NCBI RefSeq assembly: GCF_051307035.1
Contig: NZ_CP195536.1
Coordinates: 210,001-242,000 of the forward strand
DNA length: 32,000 nucleotides
Direction of reading: 5' to 3'
Source of the DNA: Psychrobacter sp. DM4
Lineage (GTDB): Bacteria; Pseudomonadota; Gammaproteobacteria; Pseudomonadales; Moraxellaceae
The notes below the pieces were generated by a model, which made no database searches, had not been told where the DNA came from, and worked only from the letters and a program-made list of their open reading frames with translations. Made by a program: the position numbers and the translations under genes. Positions within the stretch are counted from its first letter, which is position 1. Every line of letters begins with the position of its first letter. Positions 3,234 through 27,670 of the stretch are shown in pieces.

Positions 3234-3938
3234 TTGTTTGATCTTATAGTATTTTCAGGATTTGCAGGTATTACTGTGTTTGTTGGTGGATTGTTAGCTA
3301 ACTTGTTCAATCATCATGTAAAAGATAGTCCTATAAAATATGAGATTATCCATACCTCAATGTCGTTTGGCGCAGGTATCATCTTATCTGCTCTAGCACT
3401 GGTGCTGGTACCTAAAGGAATGGAGGAACTGGGTGTCTGGAGCCTGATAGGGTCGTTCTTATTAGGCGCAATGATTTTTATGGTTATTGACTATAGACTG
3501 GCTAAATCAGGCAGTCAGCAAGCGACACTACTCGCTATGATGATGGATTTTGTGCCTGAATCAATCGCCTTAGGTGCTGTGTTCGCGATTGAACCGCAGA
3601 TGGCGCTACTGTTAGCGGTATTTATCGGTTTACAGAATTTACCTGAGTCTTTTAATTCATTTCGAGACTTAGTGCAAAGTGGATACAGCGTCAAAAAGAC
3701 GCTCATTATATTTTTTGCGCTTAGCTTTTTTGGCATCATCTCTGCGCTTATAGGACATTATTTATTAAGAGAGGAGCCTCAGCTCACAGCGCATTTAATG
3801 ATCTTTGCTAGTGGAGGAATATTATATTTACTCATTCAAGACATTATTCCGGAGAGTAAACTTGATAATAACTATCTGACCTCACTTGGAGCGACGCTTG
3901 GGTTTTTAGTAGGTGTCATTGGCGAGATGATTATTTGA
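3234..3938 (+). CDS. ZIP-family divalent metal (zinc) transporter
   Basis: Polytopic membrane protein with ZIP-like segments (MMMDFVPESIALG, GLQNLPESF). TTG start preceded by GAGGGGAG about 9 nt upstream. Confidence 0.8.
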   Translation: MFDLIVFSGFAGITVFVGGLLANLFNHHVKDSPIKYEIIHTSMSFGAGIILSALALVLVPKGMEELGVWSLIGSFLLGAMIFMVIDYRLAKSGSQQATLLAMMMDFVPESIALGAVFAIEPQMALLLAVFIGLQNLPESFNSFRDLVQSGYSVKKTLIIFFALSFFGIISALIGHYLLREEPQLTAHLMIFASGGILYLLIQDIIPESKLDNNYLTSLGATLGFLVGVIGEMII

Positions 3939-3956
3939 AGTCACTATTATATAGCT

Positions 3957-3974
3957 TGTAAGCATATGCTTACA
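3957..3974. promoter_or_regulatory. GacA/UvrY-type upstream activating sequence
   Basis: The perfect palindrome TGTAAGCATATGCTTACA matches TGTAAG-N6-CTTACA at all 12 specified positions. Confidence 0.7.
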
Positions 3975-3994
3975 GACAGTGACGCTAATACCTC

Positions 3995-4023
3995 TTAACA
4001 ATGCGATAACAATTTGGCATTAT
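3995..4023 (+). promoter_or_regulatory. Sigma70-like promoter for the candidate sRNA
   Basis: TTAACA (3995-4000), 17 nt spacer, CATTAT (4018-4023). An overlapping TATAGT at 4021-4026 is an alternative -10. Confidence 0.4.
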
Positions 4024-4029
4024 AGTCAC

Positions 4030-4292
4030 ACGGCATTAGGGAATATGACTCAAGGATTGAGTTGACCGTATCACGGATGATCAGTTGATTATTAACGTCA
4101 GGATGACAATGATAATTGGTATAGGTATATAACCCTATGTTGATGGTAGTAATGCCAAAGATACACTGTAATGGGCAAGATGCCCAACTGTTATGACATA
4201 CACTACATGGATGTAGTGAAGAAAGTGATAACAGGTGACAAGGATGGTCAACGATAAAACCGCATAGCAGTGATTTGTTATGCGGTTTTATC
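4030..4292 (+). ncRNA. Candidate CsrA/RsmA-sequestering sRNA (Csr/Rsm family); the 5' end is approximate
   Basis: No ORF of 60 aa or more. Six GGA on the + strand and no TCC. GGATG occurs four times. GGA sits in hairpin loops at 4048-4062, 4070-4081, 4097-4107, 4201-4218 and 4236-4250. A GacA box lies upstream and a terminator at the 3' end. Confidence 0.65.
4256..4292 (+). terminator. Intrinsic terminator (3' end of the candidate sRNA)
   Basis: AAAACCGCATA (4256-4266) pairs with TATGCGGTTTT (4279-4289), followed by TTTTAT. Confidence 0.7.
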
Positions 4293-4340
4293 GTGTCTGG
4301 GGTTTGGAGATTCTATCTGATCAAAATTATAGCCCACAAA

Positions 4341-4371
4341 AAACCGTATTGGGCTTCAATACGGTCTTTTT
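4341..4371 (-). terminator. Intrinsic terminator downstream of csbD, bidirectional in shape
   Basis: ACCGTATTG (4343-4351) pairs with CAATACGGT (4357-4365). It is flanked by an A-run and a T-run, about 35 nt after the csbD stop. Confidence 0.7.
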
Positions 4372-4399
4372 CGTTCTATAGGACTATGTGACCTACAAC

Positions 4400-4603
4400 T
4401 TAATATTTGTTTTCACGGCGCCAATCATCAACTTCTCTTTCGGCATCTTCTTTGGCATGTCCATAGCGCTCTTGTACTCGTCCAACAAGCTTGTCACGAC
4501 TGCCTTCAATATGAGTCAAATCATCATCTGTTAAGTCAGCCCACTTCTGTTTGACTGAACCTTTCATTTGGTTCCATTCACCTTTTAGAGTATGTTCGTT
4601 CAT
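4400..4603 (-). CDS. csbD: CsbD-family stress-response protein
   Basis: 67 aa. G.W.Q.KG.VK.KW..LTDDDL..I.G.R..L.G..QERYG..K..A..EV is the CsbD signature. GGAGCA RBS upstream. Confidence 0.9.
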   Translation of the reverse strand: MNEHTLKGEWNQMKGSVKQKWADLTDDDLTHIEGSRDKLVGRVQERYGHAKEDAEREVDDWRRENKY

Positions 4604-4935
4604 TACTGTGCTCCTTTTATTTATTGATATAACGGCTTATACCGCTAGTCCTTTATTGTTTGTCACATGCTTTAGTAGTCTAAATGCAAGTAAACTCAAC
4701 ACTCAATAATCACTATATAAATTCCTTAATGTATTGTCTGTATAAGGAATGTTTGTAGTGTAACTTAATGATAATAAAGAATGCTTCAATGTATGTCCAC
4801 TCACAATACAAGTAAGCTTAGACCAAAACGATGAGCTAATACACAAGCTGCTAAAAATGCTATCAGATACTCTCTAAAAATAGAGTAATAGAATGAGAGC
4901 TGTACTTAGAGTATTATGATATTTAAATCTATAGT

Positions 4936-6168
4936 CTATTTTGCTAAATAATTGCGATAGCGTTTAGTCAGCTTTTTTAGGCGCATACGGTCTTTTATCA
5001 AAGAGACGATGGGCGAGGATTTGCGTTTAGGAGATTTGCCTTGCCCCATACGTTGTAATTGGCTTTTGACAACTGCCATAGTGGCAATAGCGCTCAAGGT
5101 TTTATCCCTCCAGCGTACCGCAGGATCGGAGGCGCTAATCTTATCATCAGTCTGCCACTGTTTTGGCAAAGCAGGATTCATAGCGAGCGCTGTACCCATA
5201 CCGACAACATCGATGCCTTGAGCCAATACTTGTTCTGCTACTGCCAAGCGTCGCACGCCGCCCGTCGTCATGACTGGCATCACTGCTATTTTTGCAAGGT
5301 CAGTTGCAAAGTCCAAAAAGTAGGCCTCGCGCTTTAACGTTCTACCATCAGCGGTTTGACCTTGCATAGCAGGACTCTCATAACTACCGCCTGATAGCTC
5401 AACCAAATCTACAGCCAGCTCATTCATTGCCAAGATAACGACTTTGGCATCATCCGAATCAAAGCCGCCGCGCTGAAAGTCAGCTGAATTTAGCTTGACT
5501 GATACCGCAAAGCTACTAGCAACTCGTGCACGAATCGCCTTGATAACTCTAATCAATAAGCGCATACGATTCTCAATCGAACCACCAAACTCATCGGTAC
5601 GTTTATTGATCAGTGGCGACAAGAACTGTGATATTAGATAGCCGTGGGCGGCATGAATTTGCACGCCATTAAACCCGGCTTGTTCAGCCTTTAGCGCAGT
5701 ATCAGCGAAGCGCTCGATAAGCTGCTCAATATCATCAGCGCTCATGGCACGAGGTTTGCCAAACAAATGCGAGTGTTTGCCTAGATCAAGAGGCACATCA
5801 GACGGAGACCATACCTCACCGCCCATCGCCGCATAAACTTGGCGACCAGGATGATTGATCTGCATCCAGACGTGAGTGTTGTCTTGTTTGGCCACCTGTG
5901 CCCAAGAGGCAAAAGGCGTAAGCTCACTTTGCTTTTCTAGAACAACGCCGCCAGGCCCTGTCATAGCACGCCCATCCACCATTACATTGCCTGTAATCAA
6001 TAGTCCAGTACCGCCCTTTGCCCATTGGTCGTACAAGCGCAAAAGTGTAGGGCCAGGGACTTGCCCGATATCTGCCATGTTCTCCTCCATAGCTGCTTTG
6101 GCTAGTCGGTTGCGTAGAGTTGCGCCGCAGGGCAAAGTAAGAGGGCTAAAAACTGTAGATGTTGCCAT
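4936..6168 (-). CDS. NADH:flavin oxidoreductase, Old Yellow Enzyme family
   Basis: LRNRLAKAAMEE, QINHPGRQ, FNGVQIHAAHGYLISQFLSP..N.RTDE.GGS.ENR and the TIM-barrel C-terminal motifs. Confidence 0.88.
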   Translation of the reverse strand: MATSTVFSPLTLPCGATLRNRLAKAAMEENMADIGQVPGPTLLRLYDQWAKGGTGLLITGNVMVDGRAMTGPGGVVLEKQSELTPFASWAQVAKQDNTHVWMQINHPGRQVYAAMGGEVWSPSDVPLDLGKHSHLFGKPRAMSADDIEQLIERFADTALKAEQAGFNGVQIHAAHGYLISQFLSPLINKRTDEFGGSIENRMRLLIRVIKAIRARVASSFAVSVKLNSADFQRGGFDSDDAKVVILAMNELAVDLVELSGGSYESPAMQGQTADGRTLKREAYFLDFATDLAKIAVMPVMTTGGVRRLAVAEQVLAQGIDVVGMGTALAMNPALPKQWQTDDKISASDPAVRWRDKTLSAIATMAVVKSQLQRMGQGKSPKRKSSPIVSLIKDRMRLKKLTKRYRNYLAK

Positions 6169-6239
6169 AAAGAAAACCTAAGTATTATTTTTAAAAGTGT
6201 GACAAGCATACCATTAAATTGTAGACTTATCGTGTAAAT

Positions 6240-6257
6240 GACTATAGCCTTATAGTC
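6240..6257. promoter_or_regulatory. Candidate TetR operator in the divergent OYE/TetR intergenic region
   Basis: Inverted repeat GACTATA-gcct-TATAGTC, located between the two divergent start codons. Confidence 0.35.
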
Positions 6258-6306
6258 GAAACATTAATAATTTGTATCAGTCATCTCAATCAACAAAGGC
6301 AGACCA

Positions 6307-7062
6307 TTGGTGAACGTTCTTGCAACAAATGCACTTGTAAATAGTACTCATGATGTACCCGTAGCCTCGAAACGTGAGCTGGCAAAAGCCAAAACGCGTA
6401 AGGCTATCCTAAAAAGCGCGCTAAGACTTTATAGCATTGAGGGTAGTTGCGGGATGAGTATGAACAAGATTGCCAAAGGCGCAGGCATCGCTCAGCCAAG
6501 CTTTTACAATCATTTTGCAAGCCTAGAGGTCTTGGAGCACGAATTGAGCGCGCAGCTCAAAGATAACTATCTATCGCCTATACGTATGGCTTGGGTGACT
6601 ATGCTTGAGGACTATACTTCACTTGATAAAGCGCAGTTTTATCAGCGTTGCCAGCAGTGTTTGGGCATGATATTTGATGCCGCCTTTGTCAATATTTATC
6701 TGTTTCAGCGCTTGATTGAAGATCGGGTACGCGCGGAGCCTACTCGCTTAGACTTATCTCTTAAAGGGCTGTCAGATAGCACAGAATCGAGTGACGGCTT
6801 GGGACACTTAATTAACGAGATACAAGAAGAGTGGACACAGATATTTATCGAAGGGTTGTTATCGGCTGAGTGCAATTTTGAGCACTCTCAGATCAATCTA
6901 AGCGTCGATATCGCGACTGCGCAAGTGCATGAGCTCATATTAGGCTGCCATCAGCAGCGTTATAGTAGAGCGCAGGCAATTGCCGTGCTTAGCAAAAACT
7001 TCGATACGCTTTTTGAGAGCTTTTGGTACAAAACCATGACGAGTCAACCGGTTACAAACTAA
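6307..7062 (+). CDS. TetR/AcrR-family transcriptional regulator
   Basis: N-terminal helix-turn-helix: KTRKAILKSALRLYS..G..GMSMNKIAKGAGIAQPSFYNHF. The start (TTG 6307 or GTG 6310) is uncertain. Confidence 0.85.
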   Translation: MVNVLATNALVNSTHDVPVASKRELAKAKTRKAILKSALRLYSIEGSCGMSMNKIAKGAGIAQPSFYNHFASLEVLEHELSAQLKDNYLSPIRMAWVTMLEDYTSLDKAQFYQRCQQCLGMIFDAAFVNIYLFQRLIEDRVRAEPTRLDLSLKGLSDSTESSDGLGHLINEIQEEWTQIFIEGLLSAECNFEHSQINLSVDIATAQVHELILGCHQQRYSRAQAIAVLSKNFDTLFESFWYKTMTSQPVTN

Positions 7063-7088
7063 ATGGAATTTACATCGTAAATAAAGGA

Positions 7089-9311
7089 ATGAGTACTATG
7101 CCAACTAAACGAAGCAAAACCATAGCCCGTAAAGGTAATGAACAAACCCATCTTAGAACTTGTACTTTGTGTGAAGCCATGTGCGGCATCGTCGTCAAGC
7201 ACGATGGCGATAAAGTATTGTCCATTAAAGGCGATAAAGATGATCCCTTTTCTCAAGGGTATATCTGCCCCAAAGCGACGGCATTACAAGATTTGCATGA
7301 AGATCCTGATCGCCTGCGCCATCCTGTAGAGCGCACGGCTAGTGGCTGGAAAAAGATCGGCTGGCCGGAGGCGTTAGACAAAGTTGCCGCTGGTATCAGC
7401 GCGGTTCAAAAAAAGCATGGCAAAAACGCGCTTGGTATCTATTTGGGTAATCCAAATGTGCACAATATGGGCGGTATGCTGACGGTCAAGCATCTCTTAA
7501 ATAGTATAAAAACTCGTAGCCGTTTCTCTGCGACGTCGATCGATCAGCTGCCGCATCACATTGTAAGCATGCATCTGTTCGGGCATATGCTGCGTATCCC
7601 AGTGCCTGATGTCAATCGTACCCAGCATATGCTTATTATCGGCGGCAATCCGCTGGCATCCAACGGCAGTATTATGACCGCACCAAACATGCGCCAAAAG
7701 ATCAAAGACATAAAAGCCCGCGATGGTAAAGTCGTGGTCATCGATCCTAGACGTACGGAGACCGCAGAGCTGGCAAGCGAGCATCATTTTATCCGTCCAG
7801 CAACCGACGTCTTACTGCTACTTGCCATGCTTAATGAGATCTATATCCAAGGTTATGCGGACAAAGCGCGCGCCAAAGATAACAAAGCCATTGCGCTCAC
7901 GCCTGCGATTGAGCGTATGGCAGACTTTGCCAAAGATTATAGCGCTGAGTCAGTAGCGAGTATCACGGGTATCAGTGCCTCTGAGATCAAACGCCTAGTC
8001 ACTGAGTTCTGTGAGGCAGATAGCTCTGTCTGCTATGGACGTATGGGCGTCTCAGTACAAGAGTTCGGTCTGCTATGTCAGTATTTGATTATGGTCATCA
8101 ATATTGTCACTGGGCGCTTAGATGAAGTCGGCGGTCTGATGTTCCCCAATCCTGCCGTTGATTTGGTCAATAATTCAGGACCAGGTTATCTGGGCAAACG
8201 TCATACGCGCGTAAGCCATTTACCTGATTTTAATGGCGATTACCCCGTAGTCGCTATGGCAGATGAGATGCTAGTAGCAGGCGAGGGACAGCTAAAAGCC
8301 TTTATGTGTGTGGCGGGTAATCCGGTGCTTAGTACCCCAAATGGTGAAAAATTAGATGAAGCATTGGCACAGTTGGAGTTTGTGGTTGCCATTGACTACT
8401 TTGTGACCGAAACCAGTCGCCATGCCAACATCATTCTGCCGCCCGCTTCGCCCTTAGAGCGCGAGCACTATGACGTTACCTTTAACGGTTTTGCGGTACA
8501 CAATGTTGCCAAGTATTCGCCCGCCTTATTTACCAAACATAAGGACGCTAAGCACGACTGGCAGATATATCTAGAGCTTGCTAAGCGCTTGGACAAAAAA
8601 CCTGCTCTGGCCACTCGGGTAGAGCGTGAGCTCACCTCGCGACTAGGGCCAAAGTTCGTCCTTGATCAAGGTTTGCGCCGCGGGCCTTATCAAGGTATGA
8701 CACTAAGCAAGCTTAAGAAAAACCCTCATGGTATGGATCTTGGGCCACTGAAACGTATGCTGCCACAAGCTATCAAACACAAAGACAAACAGATTGCTCT
8801 TAATGTAGATTTTTATCAAGCAGATCTAGCGCGCGTTCAAGAAATGATGGCGAACTATGATGCTGAGCAAATTCTACTCATAGGTCGCCGCCACGTACGT
8901 AGTAACAATTCTTGGTTACATAATAGCCAGCGCTTGGTCAAAGGCAAACCGCGTTGTACTTTGATGCTCCATCCTGACACGGCCAAAGACTACGGTATTG
9001 AGGATGGTCAAGACGTACAAGTGACCTCTCGCGTAGGGTGCGTAACCATTGTCGCTGAAGTCACCGATGAGCTAATGGCAGGAGTGGTGAGTATTCCACA
9101 TGGCTGGGGTCATGGTCGCAGTGGCGTCAAGCAAAAGATCGCTCAGGCGCATGCTGGGGTCAGCGTCAATGATTTGACCGATGATACGCTGATCGATGAG
9201 CTGTGCGGTAACGCGGCAGTCAATGGCGTACCTGTGCAACTGAAGCCTGTAAAGGTTGAGGCTGACGCTGAAGAAATAGAGACCGCTTATGAAGAAGCAA
9301 TGAGTTCATAA
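7089..9311 (+). CDS. Molybdopterin (bis-MGD) oxidoreductase, MopB superfamily; cytoplasmic, substrate unknown
   Basis: N-terminal 4Fe-4S motif CTLCEAMCG...GYICPK. Length and the C-terminal MopB barrel region (SIPHGWGH) fit the superfamily. No twin-arginine signal. Start set at MSTMPTK (7089; 7098 is also possible) instead of the track's 7023, which overlaps tetR. Confidence 0.85.
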   Translation: MSTMPTKRSKTIARKGNEQTHLRTCTLCEAMCGIVVKHDGDKVLSIKGDKDDPFSQGYICPKATALQDLHEDPDRLRHPVERTASGWKKIGWPEALDKVAAGISAVQKKHGKNALGIYLGNPNVHNMGGMLTVKHLLNSIKTRSRFSATSIDQLPHHIVSMHLFGHMLRIPVPDVNRTQHMLIIGGNPLASNGSIMTAPNMRQKIKDIKARDGKVVVIDPRRTETAELASEHHFIRPATDVLLLLAMLNEIYIQGYADKARAKDNKAIALTPAIERMADFAKDYSAESVASITGISASEIKRLVTEFCEADSSVCYGRMGVSVQEFGLLCQYLIMVINIVTGRLDEVGGLMFPNPAVDLVNNSGPGYLGKRHTRVSHLPDFNGDYPVVAMADEMLVAGEGQLKAFMCVAGNPVLSTPNGEKLDEALAQLEFVVAIDYFVTETSRHANIILPPASPLEREHYDVTFNGFAVHNVAKYSPALFTKHKDAKHDWQIYLELAKRLDKKPALATRVERELTSRLGPKFVLDQGLRRGPYQGMTLSKLKKNPHGMDLGPLKRMLPQAIKHKDKQIALNVDFYQADLARVQEMMANYDAEQILLIGRRHVRSNNSWLHNSQRLVKGKPRCTLMLHPDTAKDYGIEDGQDVQVTSRVGCVTIVAEVTDELMAGVVSIPHGWGHGRSGVKQKIAQAHAGVSVNDLTDDTLIDELCGNAAVNGVPVQLKPVKVEADAEEIETAYEEAMSS

Positions 9312-9335
9312 TTTAATTTGAGTTATTTAACACAT

Positions 9336-9366
9336 AAAAAAGGCGCTTATTGATCAGCGCCTTTTC
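9336..9366. terminator. Bidirectional intrinsic terminator between convergent genes
   Basis: AAAAGGCGCT (9338-9347) pairs with AGCGCCTTTT (9356-9365). Confidence 0.75.
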
Positions 9367-9409
9367 TATGTTTGAGCCTCTACTTTTTTTGCGACGTCAC
9401 ATTAAATAC

Positions 9410-10729
9410 TTATAAAATACCGACAAAGTCAAAATCGATATCTAGCGTCTTATTCTGCATCAATAAGCTCAACGCCTTGGCTGATCCGCAAGCGAACGTC
9501 CCACCCAAAGTTCCGTGTCCGGTATTTAGCCATAGATTATCAAAAGTTGCCTCACTGTTTTGACTACCACGCCTCACAGATCCTGCATGCGCGCGTCCTA
9601 TTAAAGGTACGCTGGATGGGGTCATCGGATGAATACTTGCCCAGTACTTGGCAGAATTGGCAATGATACCTTTTGGGAATAGATGCTGAATACGGTCAGT
9701 AATCGCTTCACAGTGCGCTAAGTTAAGCGGCAAACTATGACCATTAAATTCAATAGCGCTTGTAACTCGCAGCTTATCGCCTAAGCGCGATATGATAAGT
9801 TTGTACTCATCATCGATAAGGCTGATAAAGGGCGCTAAGTGCGGGGCGCGTGGATTGACTTTGTAGGTTGCAGAGTAGCTTTTTGCAGCAAAAATAGGCA
9901 AGTGAATACCCAATGGCTTGGCAAGCGTCATACTGTCGTGACCGAGCGCTAATACGTAACTGTCCGCGCTAAAGGTTTGTGCATTTTCATCGATAGGGCG
10001 GATGGTAATACTATGGATATGAGATTTGCTAGCGTCGTCATCTGCGCTTATGGCAACTACTTCGGTATCATACCTAAAGCGCACGCCTGCTAATATGCAC
10101 ATCTCAGCCAAGCGCTGAGTGAATAGATAGGGGTTACCTGACTCATCAGCGCTAGTAAAAGTCGCGCCAACCAGTCTATGAGCGATAGGATATAAGGCAG
10201 GCTCTAGACTTGTAGCGTTATTGATATCGATAATGCGGCGCTCGCAGCCTAGTGCTTGTAAGCGCTTTGTAGGTGCAGCTGCTGCCTCATAGTAGGTCTG
10301 ATCAGTATAAAAATGCATGGCACCGCGAGTTTTGTGCTCATAGCTGACATCGATAGCAGTGCGTAATTGTCTCAAAGCGTCCTGTGAGTATAGTCCCAAA
10401 CGCACCATTTGAGTTAAATTAGCATCCGCTTGTTCAGCACGGCGCTCACGCAAAAATTGTAGCGCCCATTGACGCTGCGATTTGTCAGACCGCAAGTGAT
10501 ATAAAAGCGGCGCATCTTCTCGAAAAAACCCCTTGAGTGTTGCAAGTGGCGTCTTAGGATTAGCCCACGGATTCATACTACCAATAGATAGCGCACCACT
10601 CGCAAATAGCGTCTGTATACCTGATGCGGACTCACGCTCAATCACTGTAACCTCAAAACCTGCCTGGCGCAGATACCATGCGGTAGTGACACCGATCACG
10701 CCTGCTCCTAGTACTGCAATGTGCGTCAT
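9410..10729 (-). CDS. dadA: D-amino-acid dehydrogenase-like FAD oxidoreductase (DAO family)
   Basis: MTHIAVLGAGVIGVTTAWYL.QAG.EVTVIERE (Rossmann fold), a C-terminal NLWLNTGHGTLG motif as in E. coli DadA, and about 430 aa in length. Confidence 0.8.
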   Translation of the reverse strand: MTHIAVLGAGVIGVTTAWYLRQAGFEVTVIERESASGIQTLFASGALSIGSMNPWANPKTPLATLKGFFREDAPLLYHLRSDKSQRQWALQFLRERRAEQADANLTQMVRLGLYSQDALRQLRTAIDVSYEHKTRGAMHFYTDQTYYEAAAAPTKRLQALGCERRIIDINNATSLEPALYPIAHRLVGATFTSADESGNPYLFTQRLAEMCILAGVRFRYDTEVVAISADDDASKSHIHSITIRPIDENAQTFSADSYVLALGHDSMTLAKPLGIHLPIFAAKSYSATYKVNPRAPHLAPFISLIDDEYKLIISRLGDKLRVTSAIEFNGHSLPLNLAHCEAITDRIQHLFPKGIIANSAKYWASIHPMTPSSVPLIGRAHAGSVRRGSQNSEATFDNLWLNTGHGTLGGTFACGSAKALSLLMQNKTLDIDFDFVGIL

Positions 10730-21745: not shown

Positions 21746-21835
21746 GGTGAAGTGGGTGAGTGGCTGAAACCAGTTCCCTGCTAAGGAACCATACGTTAAC
21801 GCGTATCGAGGGTTCGAATCCCTCCTTCACCGCCA
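21746..21835 (+). tRNA. tRNA-Ser (anticodon GCT)
   Basis: Acceptor GGTGAAG/CTTCACC. Anticodon arm GTTCC-CTGCTAA-GGAAC. Long variable arm ATACG..CGTAT. T-arm GAGGG-TTCGAAT-CCCTC. Encoded CCA. Confidence 0.95.
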
Positions 21836-21901
21836 TCTTATTCGGCGATATTTAGAGTTCGATGTCTTTAACAGTATTTTCTATTTTAGCTGACAAAAAC
21901 A

Positions 21902-21929
21902 TTGACATTAAGTGTGTACTCTATATAAT
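21902..21929 (+). promoter_or_regulatory. Sigma70 promoter for tRNA-Arg
   Basis: TTGACA (21902-21907), 16 nt spacer, TATAAT (21924-21929). The tRNA starts 51 nt after the -10. Confidence 0.6.
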
Positions 21930-21979
21930 AGCCAACCTAATTTACTACAAACTTATTTGTAGTAAATGATGTGCAATAC

Positions 21980-22056
21980 GCGCCCGTAGCTCAGTTGGAT
22001 AGAGCACTTGGCTACGAACTAAGGGGTCGGGAGTTCGAATCTCTCCGGGCGCACCA
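21980..22056 (+). tRNA. tRNA-Arg (anticodon ACG)
   Basis: Acceptor GCGCCCG/CGGGCGC. Anticodon arm CTTGG-CTACGAA-CTAAG. T-arm GGGAG-TTCGAAT-CTCTC. Encoded CCA. Confidence 0.95.
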
Positions 22057-27335: not shown

Positions 27336-27411
27336 TGGCAGGGGTAGCTGGACTCGAACCAACGGATGTCAGGATCAAAACCTGATGCCTTACCAACTTG
27401 GCTATACCCCT
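27336..27411 (-). tRNA. tRNA-Gln (anticodon TTG), copy 1
   Basis: The reverse complement gives AGGGGTA...TACCCCT-G-CCA. Anticodon arm TCAGG-TTTTGAT-CCTGA. T-arm TTGG-TTCGAGT-CCAG. Confidence 0.93.
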
Positions 27412-27594: not shown

Positions 27595-27670
27595 TGGCAG
27601 GGGTAGCTGGACTCGAACCAACGGATGTCAGGATCAAAACCTGATGCCTTACCAACTTGGCTATACCCCT
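27595..27670 (-). tRNA. tRNA-Gln (anticodon TTG), copy 2
   Basis: 76/76 identical to copy 1. Confidence 0.93.

Follow-up and report, generated by a model that had tools for sequence, protein, structure and literature searches.

The intergenic region behind a ZIP-family transporter gene of Psychrobacter sp. DM4 was analyzed in a 32-kb stretch of DNA (contig NZ_CP195536.1, positions 210,001 to 242,000; called the window in the following, with all coordinates counted from its first nucleotide). This locus is very probably a self-contained gene whose product, a non-coding RNA of about 265 nucleotides (nt), belongs to the Csr/Rsm "sponge" class. The predicted small RNA (sRNA) covers positions 4030-4292 of the plus strand (about 263-265 nt), with the U-tract of a terminator as 3' end, and reached 249 bits with R1, a covariance model built from 18 orthologous RNAs. 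Judged by every sequence-level criterion the RNA fits the Rsm/Csr class, yet it is found in no curated family. It is part of a Psychrobacter-specific multi-copy RNA family outside Rfam, which was computationally foreseen in 2006 (Kulkarni et al., 2006; PMC1488887). The sequence elements of the locus, their conservation, the covarying structure, the unpaired state of the GGA triplets, the independence from the upstream gene and the lack of coding potential were observed directly.

Kulkarni et al. (2006; PMC1488887) had used five criteria for the prediction of such RNAs, namely (i) an intergenic location, (ii) the density of AGGA/ARGGA motifs, (iii) a Rho-independent terminator, (iv) exposed GGA triplets and (v) an 18-bp upstream site. 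The sRNA of the window lies within the gap from the end of the ZIP stop codon (3938) to the stop codon of csbD (4400), and is thus intergenic (criterion i).

A Gac-Type Box and a Conserved Promoter Precede the RNA

A perfect 18-bp palindrome, TGTAAGCATATGCTTACA, was found at 3957-3974, at a distance of 19 nt from the ZIP stop codon. As proposed in the initial annotation of this DNA, it agrees with the consensus of GacA/UvrY-type upstream activating boxes (TGTAAG-N6-CTTACA) at all 12 specified positions. It is the sole perfect match in the 32 kb, and none was obtained in 100 shuffles (criterion v). Within the alignment of 18 Psychrobacter orthologs described below the box was the same in all 18 sequences; in the more distant P. 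ciconiae-like lineage it reads TGTAAGCAAAAGCTTACA. The element TGACG, 5 nt after the box (3980-3984, plus strand), likewise showed no change in any of the 18 orthologs; a second regulator may bind here, or the element may extend the box.

A promoter scan identified the -35 hexamer TTAACA at 3995-4000, invariant in all 18 orthologs, and, behind a 17-nt spacer, a -10 region (CATTATAGT, 4018-4026) with an upstream TG, both on the plus strand. The -10 sequence reads CAYTATAG with hardly any variation among the orthologs, while the paralogs have GAYTATAG. The promoter named in the initial annotation (TTAACA, 17 nt, CATTAT; 3995-4023) is present. As a bare consensus match it does not rise above chance level (4 sites in the region versus 4.3 expected), so that its credibility comes from the conservation of the hexamers and not from the match to the consensus. 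The spacer after the -35 hexamer varies freely among the orthologs, and conservation restarts at ACGGCAT. An invariant box and -35 hexamer, a variable spacer and then a conserved RNA form the pattern expected of an activator-site promoter plus a functional RNA. Promoter position and the start of conservation at ACGGCAT would place the 5' end near 4030.

Covariation Supports a Conserved Structure With Exposed GGA Motifs

The region downstream of the ZIP gene was 71-76% identical to the window in 17 of 17 Psychrobacter genomes. Alignment A1 comprised 18 orthologous RNAs aligned with MAFFT. Searching metagenome contigs with R1 yielded 21 further full-length copies at 225-309 bits, and more divergent matches at 156-164 bits from another Psychrobacter lineage including P. 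ciconiae. Alignment A2 comprised 43 sequences (39 distinct), which were aligned by their fit to the covariance model. Conservation of the palindrome and of the GGA-loop hairpins in orthologous regions, which the initial annotation had named as a check, was observed for the 17 Psychrobacter genomes as well as for about 21 contigs from metagenomes.

RNAalifold predicted 78 base pairs for A1, 29 of them with compensatory changes. All further counts refer to an 80-pair structure, which consists of the RNAalifold pairs with two of them (39-49 and 40-48) replaced by a 4-bp hairpin at 4070-4081. In A1, 97.1% of the cells were paired in this structure. Double changes were found at 30 pairs compared to 12.4 +/- 2.1 in column shuffles, with 0 of 500 shuffles reaching 30, and controls in which the partners were moved by 1 to 3 columns gave only 3 to 10 such pairs. 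For A2, 41 of the 80 pairs showed double changes versus 21.2 +/- 2.4 in shuffles. We are aware of the fact that A2 leans towards the structure because the alignment was fitted to the model; the independent MAFFT alignment gave the same answer. Folding of the 265-nt stretch of the window resulted in -86 kcal/mol compared to -58 +/- 4 for shuffled sequences (z = -6.6).

The window copy contains six GGA triplets (at 4040, 4054, 4075, 4101, 4209 and 4242) and no TCC within 267 nt, GGATG occurring four times. Five of the six triplets were found as ANGGA (criterion ii). Six or more GGA combined with zero TCC were observed in only 0.28% of all 267-nt segments of the 32 kb, counting both strands. These counts rank the window copy among the highest 0.1-0.3% of segments. 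In the orthologs 7 to 10 GGA and 0 or 1 TCC were found per sequence on the sense strand. The family has eight conserved GGA sites, of which six are present in 16 to 18 of the 18 sequences, and all eight are located in hairpin loops or joints. In A1, 140 of 147 GGA triplets (95%) were unpaired, though only 44% of the columns were unpaired (criterion iv).

A single-stranded AGGGAA is located at 4039-4044, just upstream of the first hairpin (4048-4062, within a feature at 4043-4062), which carries GGA 4054-4056 in its loop (ACTCAAGGATTGAGT; GGA in 17 of 18 orthologs). The pairs of this helix 3 are kept, with a U-A to C-G double change in the distant lineage (GACCCAAGGATTGGG). The following short hairpin ATCA[CGGA]TGAT (helix 4, 4070-4081, GGA 4075-4077 in 18 of 18 orthologs) is the weakest helix of the structure: it has 4 bp, 94% of its cells are paired, and a single compensatory change was seen (C-G here versus U-A elsewhere). 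Helix 5 is a long stem-loop (4084-4120) capped by GTC[AGGAT]GAC, with GGA 4101-4103 in 18 of 18 orthologs and compensatory changes at 10 of 14 pairs in A1 and 11 of 14 in A2. The hairpin GGGCA[AGA]TGCCC (helix 6, 4173-4185) shows compensatory G-C to A-U changes and presents a loop GGA in 17 of 18 orthologs, with AGA in the window copy. Helix 9 forms the hairpin CACTACA[TGGA]TGTAGTG (4200-4218, GGA 4209-4211 in 18 of 18 orthologs) with double changes at 4 to 5 of its 7 pairs. The hairpin TGAC[AAGGATG]GTCA (helix 10, 4236-4250, GGA 4242-4244 in 18 of 18 orthologs) was 100% paired, with double changes at 3 of 4 pairs in A2.

At the 3' end, fold and conservation define an intrinsic terminator at 4251-4294 of the plus strand, with an 18-pair stem (CGATAAAACCGCATAGCA / TGTTATGCGGTTTTATCG) and a U-rich 3' side, TTTTATCGT. 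This helix 11 was 99% paired and contained 6 pairs with double changes in A2 (criterion iii). The pattern scan for terminators flagged the hairpin on the minus strand only. The same scan found a second, bidirectional terminator at 4338-4375 (ACCGTATTGGGCTTCAATACGGT, with A and T runs on either side), which most likely ends the convergent csbD gene and could back up the termination of the sRNA. Taken together, the six GGA triplets, the lack of TCC, the five GGA hairpins and the strong stem-loop with U tract, all listed in the initial annotation, were recovered in sequence and consensus structure. Conservation and covariation show that each of the architectural elements listed there is real and under selection.

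The RNA Is Independent of the Upstream Gene and Has No Coding Role

In the window the gene upstream of the box encodes the ZIP-family protein of 234 amino acids (3234-3938, stop codon 3936-3938, Pfam Zip match). Many related contigs are without this gene; there the RNA has a divergent gene for a PepSY-domain lipoprotein on one side and the convergent csbD gene on the other. The ZIP position is taken by an SH3 gene and vanY in the P. ciconiae-like lineage, with the end of vanY 8 nt before the box. As the upstream gene differs (ZIP, vanY or the PepSY gene) while box and promoter stay, the RNA represents its own transcription unit. With its own control region and a convergent downstream gene it is neither merely a 3' untranslated region (UTR) nor a leader. 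The csbD gene is located at 4400-4603 on the minus strand (Pfam CsbD, 74 bits), and the possibility that the RNA is the leader of a downstream gene was rejected due to this convergent orientation. Since neither ZIP nor vanY has its own terminator, transcripts that read through and include the RNA as 3' UTR are likely to exist besides. A vanY homolog was found in Moraxella, where the adjoining RNA was not found.

A small protein was also rejected as product of the locus. The longest open reading frames (ORFs) comprise 24 to 83 amino acids, with strands and frames varying between sequences, and the length of 257 of the 297 gap runs is not divisible by three; no ORF is conserved. For the window, the absence of ORFs of at least 60 amino acids from the region, as given in the initial annotation, was confirmed. 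Antisense ORFs of up to 83 amino acids cross the RNA in several orthologs. A hypothetical protein of 65 amino acids was called at 4244-4441 on the minus strand in four related loci (L194, L196, L198, L201); it lies in the gap between csbD and sRNA and overlaps the terminator region of the RNA. Such antisense calls probably arose as artefacts of annotation, comparable to the "rsmZ inside Psyc_0155" of 2006, and the present result lets them be corrected.

The best match of the ZIP protein was found in P. saeujeotis (86% identity), and the gene was present in 17 Psychrobacter genomes. Its closest relatives outside of Psychrobacter are those of Flavobacteriia and other Bacteroidota, with 74-78% amino acid identity. 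The gene (window 3234-3938) is missing at the corresponding site in many Psychrobacter-like contigs (loci L017-L055 compared). From these sequences, the ZIP gene looks like a horizontal acquisition inserted just upstream of the Gac box.

Related Box-Flanked RNAs and Paralogs

When metagenome contigs were searched for exact matches to the 18-mer, at least 120 stretches were found, and 80 loci with 84 box occurrences were analyzed among the matches listed. Again among these, 62 of the 84 boxes had 6 or more GGA and 2 or fewer TCC within 60 to 400 nt on one side. GACG at a fixed offset was observed for 54 of the 62 boxes with a GGA-rich flank versus 0 of 17 without. Most GGA-flanked boxes share a common promoter, in which the box is followed after 5 nt by TGACG, then after about 10 nt by CTTA(A)C and after a further 17 nt or so by GAYTATAG or CAYTATAG, with CACGGCAT behind it. 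In several paralogs (loci L073-L152) TGACG is part of an inverted repeat, GACGC-N4-GCGTC, which overlaps the -35 hexamer.

The box-flanked sequences cluster into the csbD-linked locus, to which the window copy belongs, a prc/slyD locus and a tandem arrangement at prc. The prc-slyD cluster was found on 18 contigs downstream of nagZ (Pfam TSP_NTD/Peptidase_S41, FKBP_C and Glyco_hydro_3). Single copies of box and sRNA between prc and a convergent slyD were observed at L075, L104-L106, L110 and L130. In the tandem type 2-3 box-RNA units with a length of about 330 nt come after prc, accompanied by a csbD homolog and by genes for a histidine kinase and a response regulator; such tandem/prc loci are located at L091 (3034-5162), L103 (2405-4597), L133 (713-1692) and on L145. 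Flanking proteins on L133 and the syntenic L092, L096 and L108 were 64-84% identical to those of the window, and therefore these contigs derive from Psychrobacter or a close relative. In common with the window RNA the paralogs have the box, the promoter, the 5' module ACGGCATCAAGGATGATGACTCAAAGGATTGAGT, the hairpins GAGCAGGATGCTC and GTCAGGATGAC, and the terminator. A csbD-family gene convergent to an sRNA copy was observed at both loci (window 4400-4603; L103 3108-3293; L091 3680-3865), and this recurring pairing reflects either joint duplication or a functional link. On the Psychrobacter-like contig L092 a protein of 2050 amino acids with DUF5724, DUF4132 and DUF7737 is encoded between two sRNA loci (4030-10182).

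Further GGA-rich clusters behind the identical 18-mer were observed (L102, L121, L131 and L149; L087, L118 and L126; L080, L093 and L095; L081; L151). Some of them differ in promoter layout and are probably from other genera. L080 and L151 were scanned at Rfam gathering thresholds, and neither was recognized. Within the 32 kb of the window the only other match of R1 was found at 9332-9480 on the minus strand with 18.7 bits; as a plain terminator without GGA it was rejected as a second copy. Two tRNA-Gln(TTG) genes of identical sequence (65.8 bits each) are located 259 nt apart on the minus strand of the window, at 27336-27411 and 27595-27670.

It is possible, if still doubtful, that these RNAs constitute a Psychrobacter Rsm-like family of its own with several non-classical features: a Gac box with a fixed TGACG, often as inverted repeat over the -35 hexamer; paralogs at two loci, including 2-3 tandem copies after prc and the pairing of sRNA and csbD; and a slot in front of the box which repeatedly took up foreign terminator-less genes (Bacteroidota-like ZIP, vanY). 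If true, the fixed TGACG and the inverted repeat would suggest a co-regulator, and the ZIP and vanY mRNAs would carry a CsrA sponge as 3' UTR, which would link their expression to the availability of CsrA. Side points perhaps worth following up are the TGACG element, the slot for insertions in front of the box, the pairing with csbD and the occurrence of tandem copies at prc.

Proposed Function and Alternative Explanations

From the elements described above we infer transcription with its start site, dependence on GacA, and binding and titration of CsrA as follows. A GacA/UvrY-type response regulator would bind the 18-bp palindrome, whose centre is located some 65 bp ahead of the start, and activate the weak sigma-70 promoter TTAACA/17 nt/CATTAT. 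The resulting transcript would extend from near 4030 to the terminator at 4292. Its stem-loops are predicted to expose GGA triplets in their loops and in single-stranded joints, most of them within A(N)GGAUG; six such sites are found in the window copy, eight in most relatives. These sites would bind CsrA dimers and draw CsrA off mRNA leaders, so that translational control by CsrA would be relieved when the Gac-type two-component system is active.

Several observations weigh against this assignment. Two of the eight GGA sites of the family are absent from the window copy: TATAGGT is found at 4121-4127 (GTA at 4125) versus GTAAGGA in 16 of 18 orthologs, and AGA at 4178-4180 (GCAAGATGC versus GCAGGATGC), where 17 of 18 have GGA. 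By eye, four of the six remaining sites strictly fit AGGA/ARGGA, while two (CGGA, TGGA) miss this motif. Copies that agree with the window copy in R1 score (249.1 bits) and length (267 nt) were found in independent assemblies (L117, L065, L066, L069), and this recurrence suggests that the six-site allele is not a sequencing error. Scanning the window and 20 related loci with Rfam 15 at gathering thresholds gave nothing relevant. Our literature search for experimental work on Csr/Rsm-type RNAs of Psychrobacter (expression, CsrA binding, gacA mutant) found none. Finally, tblastn queries with CsrA and UvrY of E. coli and RsmA of P. aeruginosa recovered neither csrA nor gacA/gacS from the window or the related loci and matched only a generic response regulator. 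In several gammaproteobacteria csrA stands upstream of a tRNA-Ser/tRNA-Arg pair; upstream of the corresponding pair of the window (21746-22056) it was not found, and proC- and yggT-like genes are present there. A search for CsrA homologs returned only Pseudomonas aeruginosa variants among its best 120 matches and was thus swamped and uninformative with respect to Psychrobacter. Acinetobacter belongs to the same family as Psychrobacter. For Acinetobacter baumannii GacSA is described (PMC12609611). By analogy with this system, and following the published statement on P. arcticum (PMC1488887), csrA and gacA would be expected in the host.

Three other explanations were considered. That read-through from the upstream gene (ZIP or vanY) yields the RNA mainly as a 3' UTR, without the function of a promoter-driven sRNA, appears unlikely. 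The short distances of 19 and 8 nt to the box with no terminator in between make read-through to 4292 likely and speak for this explanation and against a separate gene. However, in many relatives box, promoter and RNA occur next to the divergent PepSY gene, and no gene of the same orientation lies upstream; these include the many relatives without ZIP that bear on the mere transporter 3' UTR considered in the initial annotation; box and both hexamers are invariant or nearly so, and read-through and an own promoter can coexist. We assign a similarly low probability to a structured sRNA which pairs with mRNAs in an Hfq-dependent manner, or binds a protein other than CsrA, with the GGA triplets being incidental. 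The U-tail of the terminator could serve as an Hfq site, no Csr/Rsm model of Rfam reached its threshold, and CsrA binding is here a prediction from sequence. Conversely, the GGA sites are conserved while the surrounding stems change by compensation, 95% of the GGA triplets are unpaired, TCC is nearly absent with 0 or 1 per sequence, and the GGA contexts fit what is generally known as the motif ACA-GGAUG selected by CsrA in SELEX-type (systematic evolution of ligands by exponential enrichment) experiments. No long conserved single-stranded seed is apparent besides the GGA loops.

The least probable of the three explanations, a CsrA sponge which responds to a different signal since its palindrome is bound by a regulator other than GacA/UvrY, would accommodate the extra TGACG next to the box, by which the promoter differs from textbook rsm promoters. 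Yet 12 of 12 specified positions match TGTAAG-N6-CTTACA, the distance between box and promoter is fixed, and the box is tightly associated with GGA-rich RNAs (62 of 84, among the matches listed). The sites of P. arcticum were scored as strong "rsmY upstream sites" (PMC1488887), and GacSA is described for A. baumannii (PMC12609611). A separate Csr/Rsm-type sponge RNA under a Gac-type promoter thus remains the preferred explanation.

With it, Psychrobacter, a cold-adapted genus and model for low-temperature life, would gain a well-defined output RNA of the Gac/Csr system. The alignment of about 40 sequences, the structure backed by covariation and the working covariance model are enough to seed a curated RNA family, and exact experimental targets (box, promoter and eight GGA sites) are supplied. 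The general understanding of Csr/Rsm systems is unchanged by the finding.

Relation to the Prediction of 2006

CSRNA_FIND was run on 60 species chosen for their CsrA homologs, P. arcticum included (Kulkarni et al., 2006; PMC1488887). For P. arcticum the RNAs rsmY (lying between Psyc_1521 and Psyc_1522, with the orientation -> <- <-), rsmX (prc/slyD) and rsmZ (inside the hypothetical gene Psyc_0155) were predicted, all three with strong "rsmY upstream sites" (PMC1488887). These predictions and the window RNA come from the same genus and share the same five criteria. The arrangement prc-box-sRNA-slyD of the 2006 rsmX is that of the paralog cluster recovered here on 18 contigs. Read from csbD, the order of the window (csbD -> / sRNA <- / co-oriented gene <-) fits the "-> <- <-" of the 2006 rsmY, and this gene orientation suggests that the window locus is orthologous to it. 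The tags Psyc_1521/Psyc_1522 were not found mentioned in other literature, and P. arcticus was not among the results of the CsbD and VanY homolog searches. In contrast to the present analysis, the predictions of 2006 gave no structure or covariation, and they were neither validated nor curated. The novelty assumed in the initial annotation is reduced by the three such RNAs predicted for P. arcticum in 2006.

Comparison With Known Csr/Rsm RNAs

The assumption of the initial annotation that the RNA is a lineage-specific family member agrees with the Rfam results, as no model was matched at threshold and weak matches to RsmY and CsrB were the only relevant ones. The RsmY model (RF00195) matched 4166-4289 over its full length with 20.0 bits, below its gathering score of 57, and with 16.8 bits in a truncated search of the window. 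It aligned two GGA hairpins, the first of them at 4173-4185, AAGGAUG and the terminator with the 3' domain of the RNA. Paralogs of the prc locus reached 29.6 and 18 bits with RsmY, and 24.7 bits with CsrB compared to a gathering score of 71. The models CsrB/RsmB (RF00018), CsrC (RF00084), PrrB_RsmZ and RsmX gave no match at E <= 10 within 3850-4450. When E-values were used, the relevant matches all belonged to clan CL00106 and were sub-threshold, among chance matches to miRNA and snoRNA models.

The Psychrobacter RNA resembles RsmY and RsmZ/RsmX of Pseudomonas and RsmY/RsmZ of Legionella in the TGTAAG-N6-CTTACA box tens of bp above a sigma-70 promoter, in the display of GGA in hairpin loops and single-stranded joints, and in the strong intrinsic terminator. 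These Rsm RNAs are about 110-130 nt long. With about 265 nt the Psychrobacter RNA is about twice as long, and it has a long 5' domain (4030-4142) without counterpart there. Its promoter differs from Rsm promoters by the additional conserved TGACG. With CsrB/RsmB and CsrC of Enterobacteria and Vibrio it would share, judging from its sequence, the functional class and the display of GGA by multiple hairpins, with a size near that of CsrC. CsrB contains about 18 to 22 GGA sites, while the Psychrobacter RNAs have far fewer, namely 6 to 10. Like Csr RNAs, for which tandem and multiple copies are described in Vibrio, Photobacterium and Colwellia (PMC1488887), the Psychrobacter RNAs occur as several or tandem gene copies per genome.

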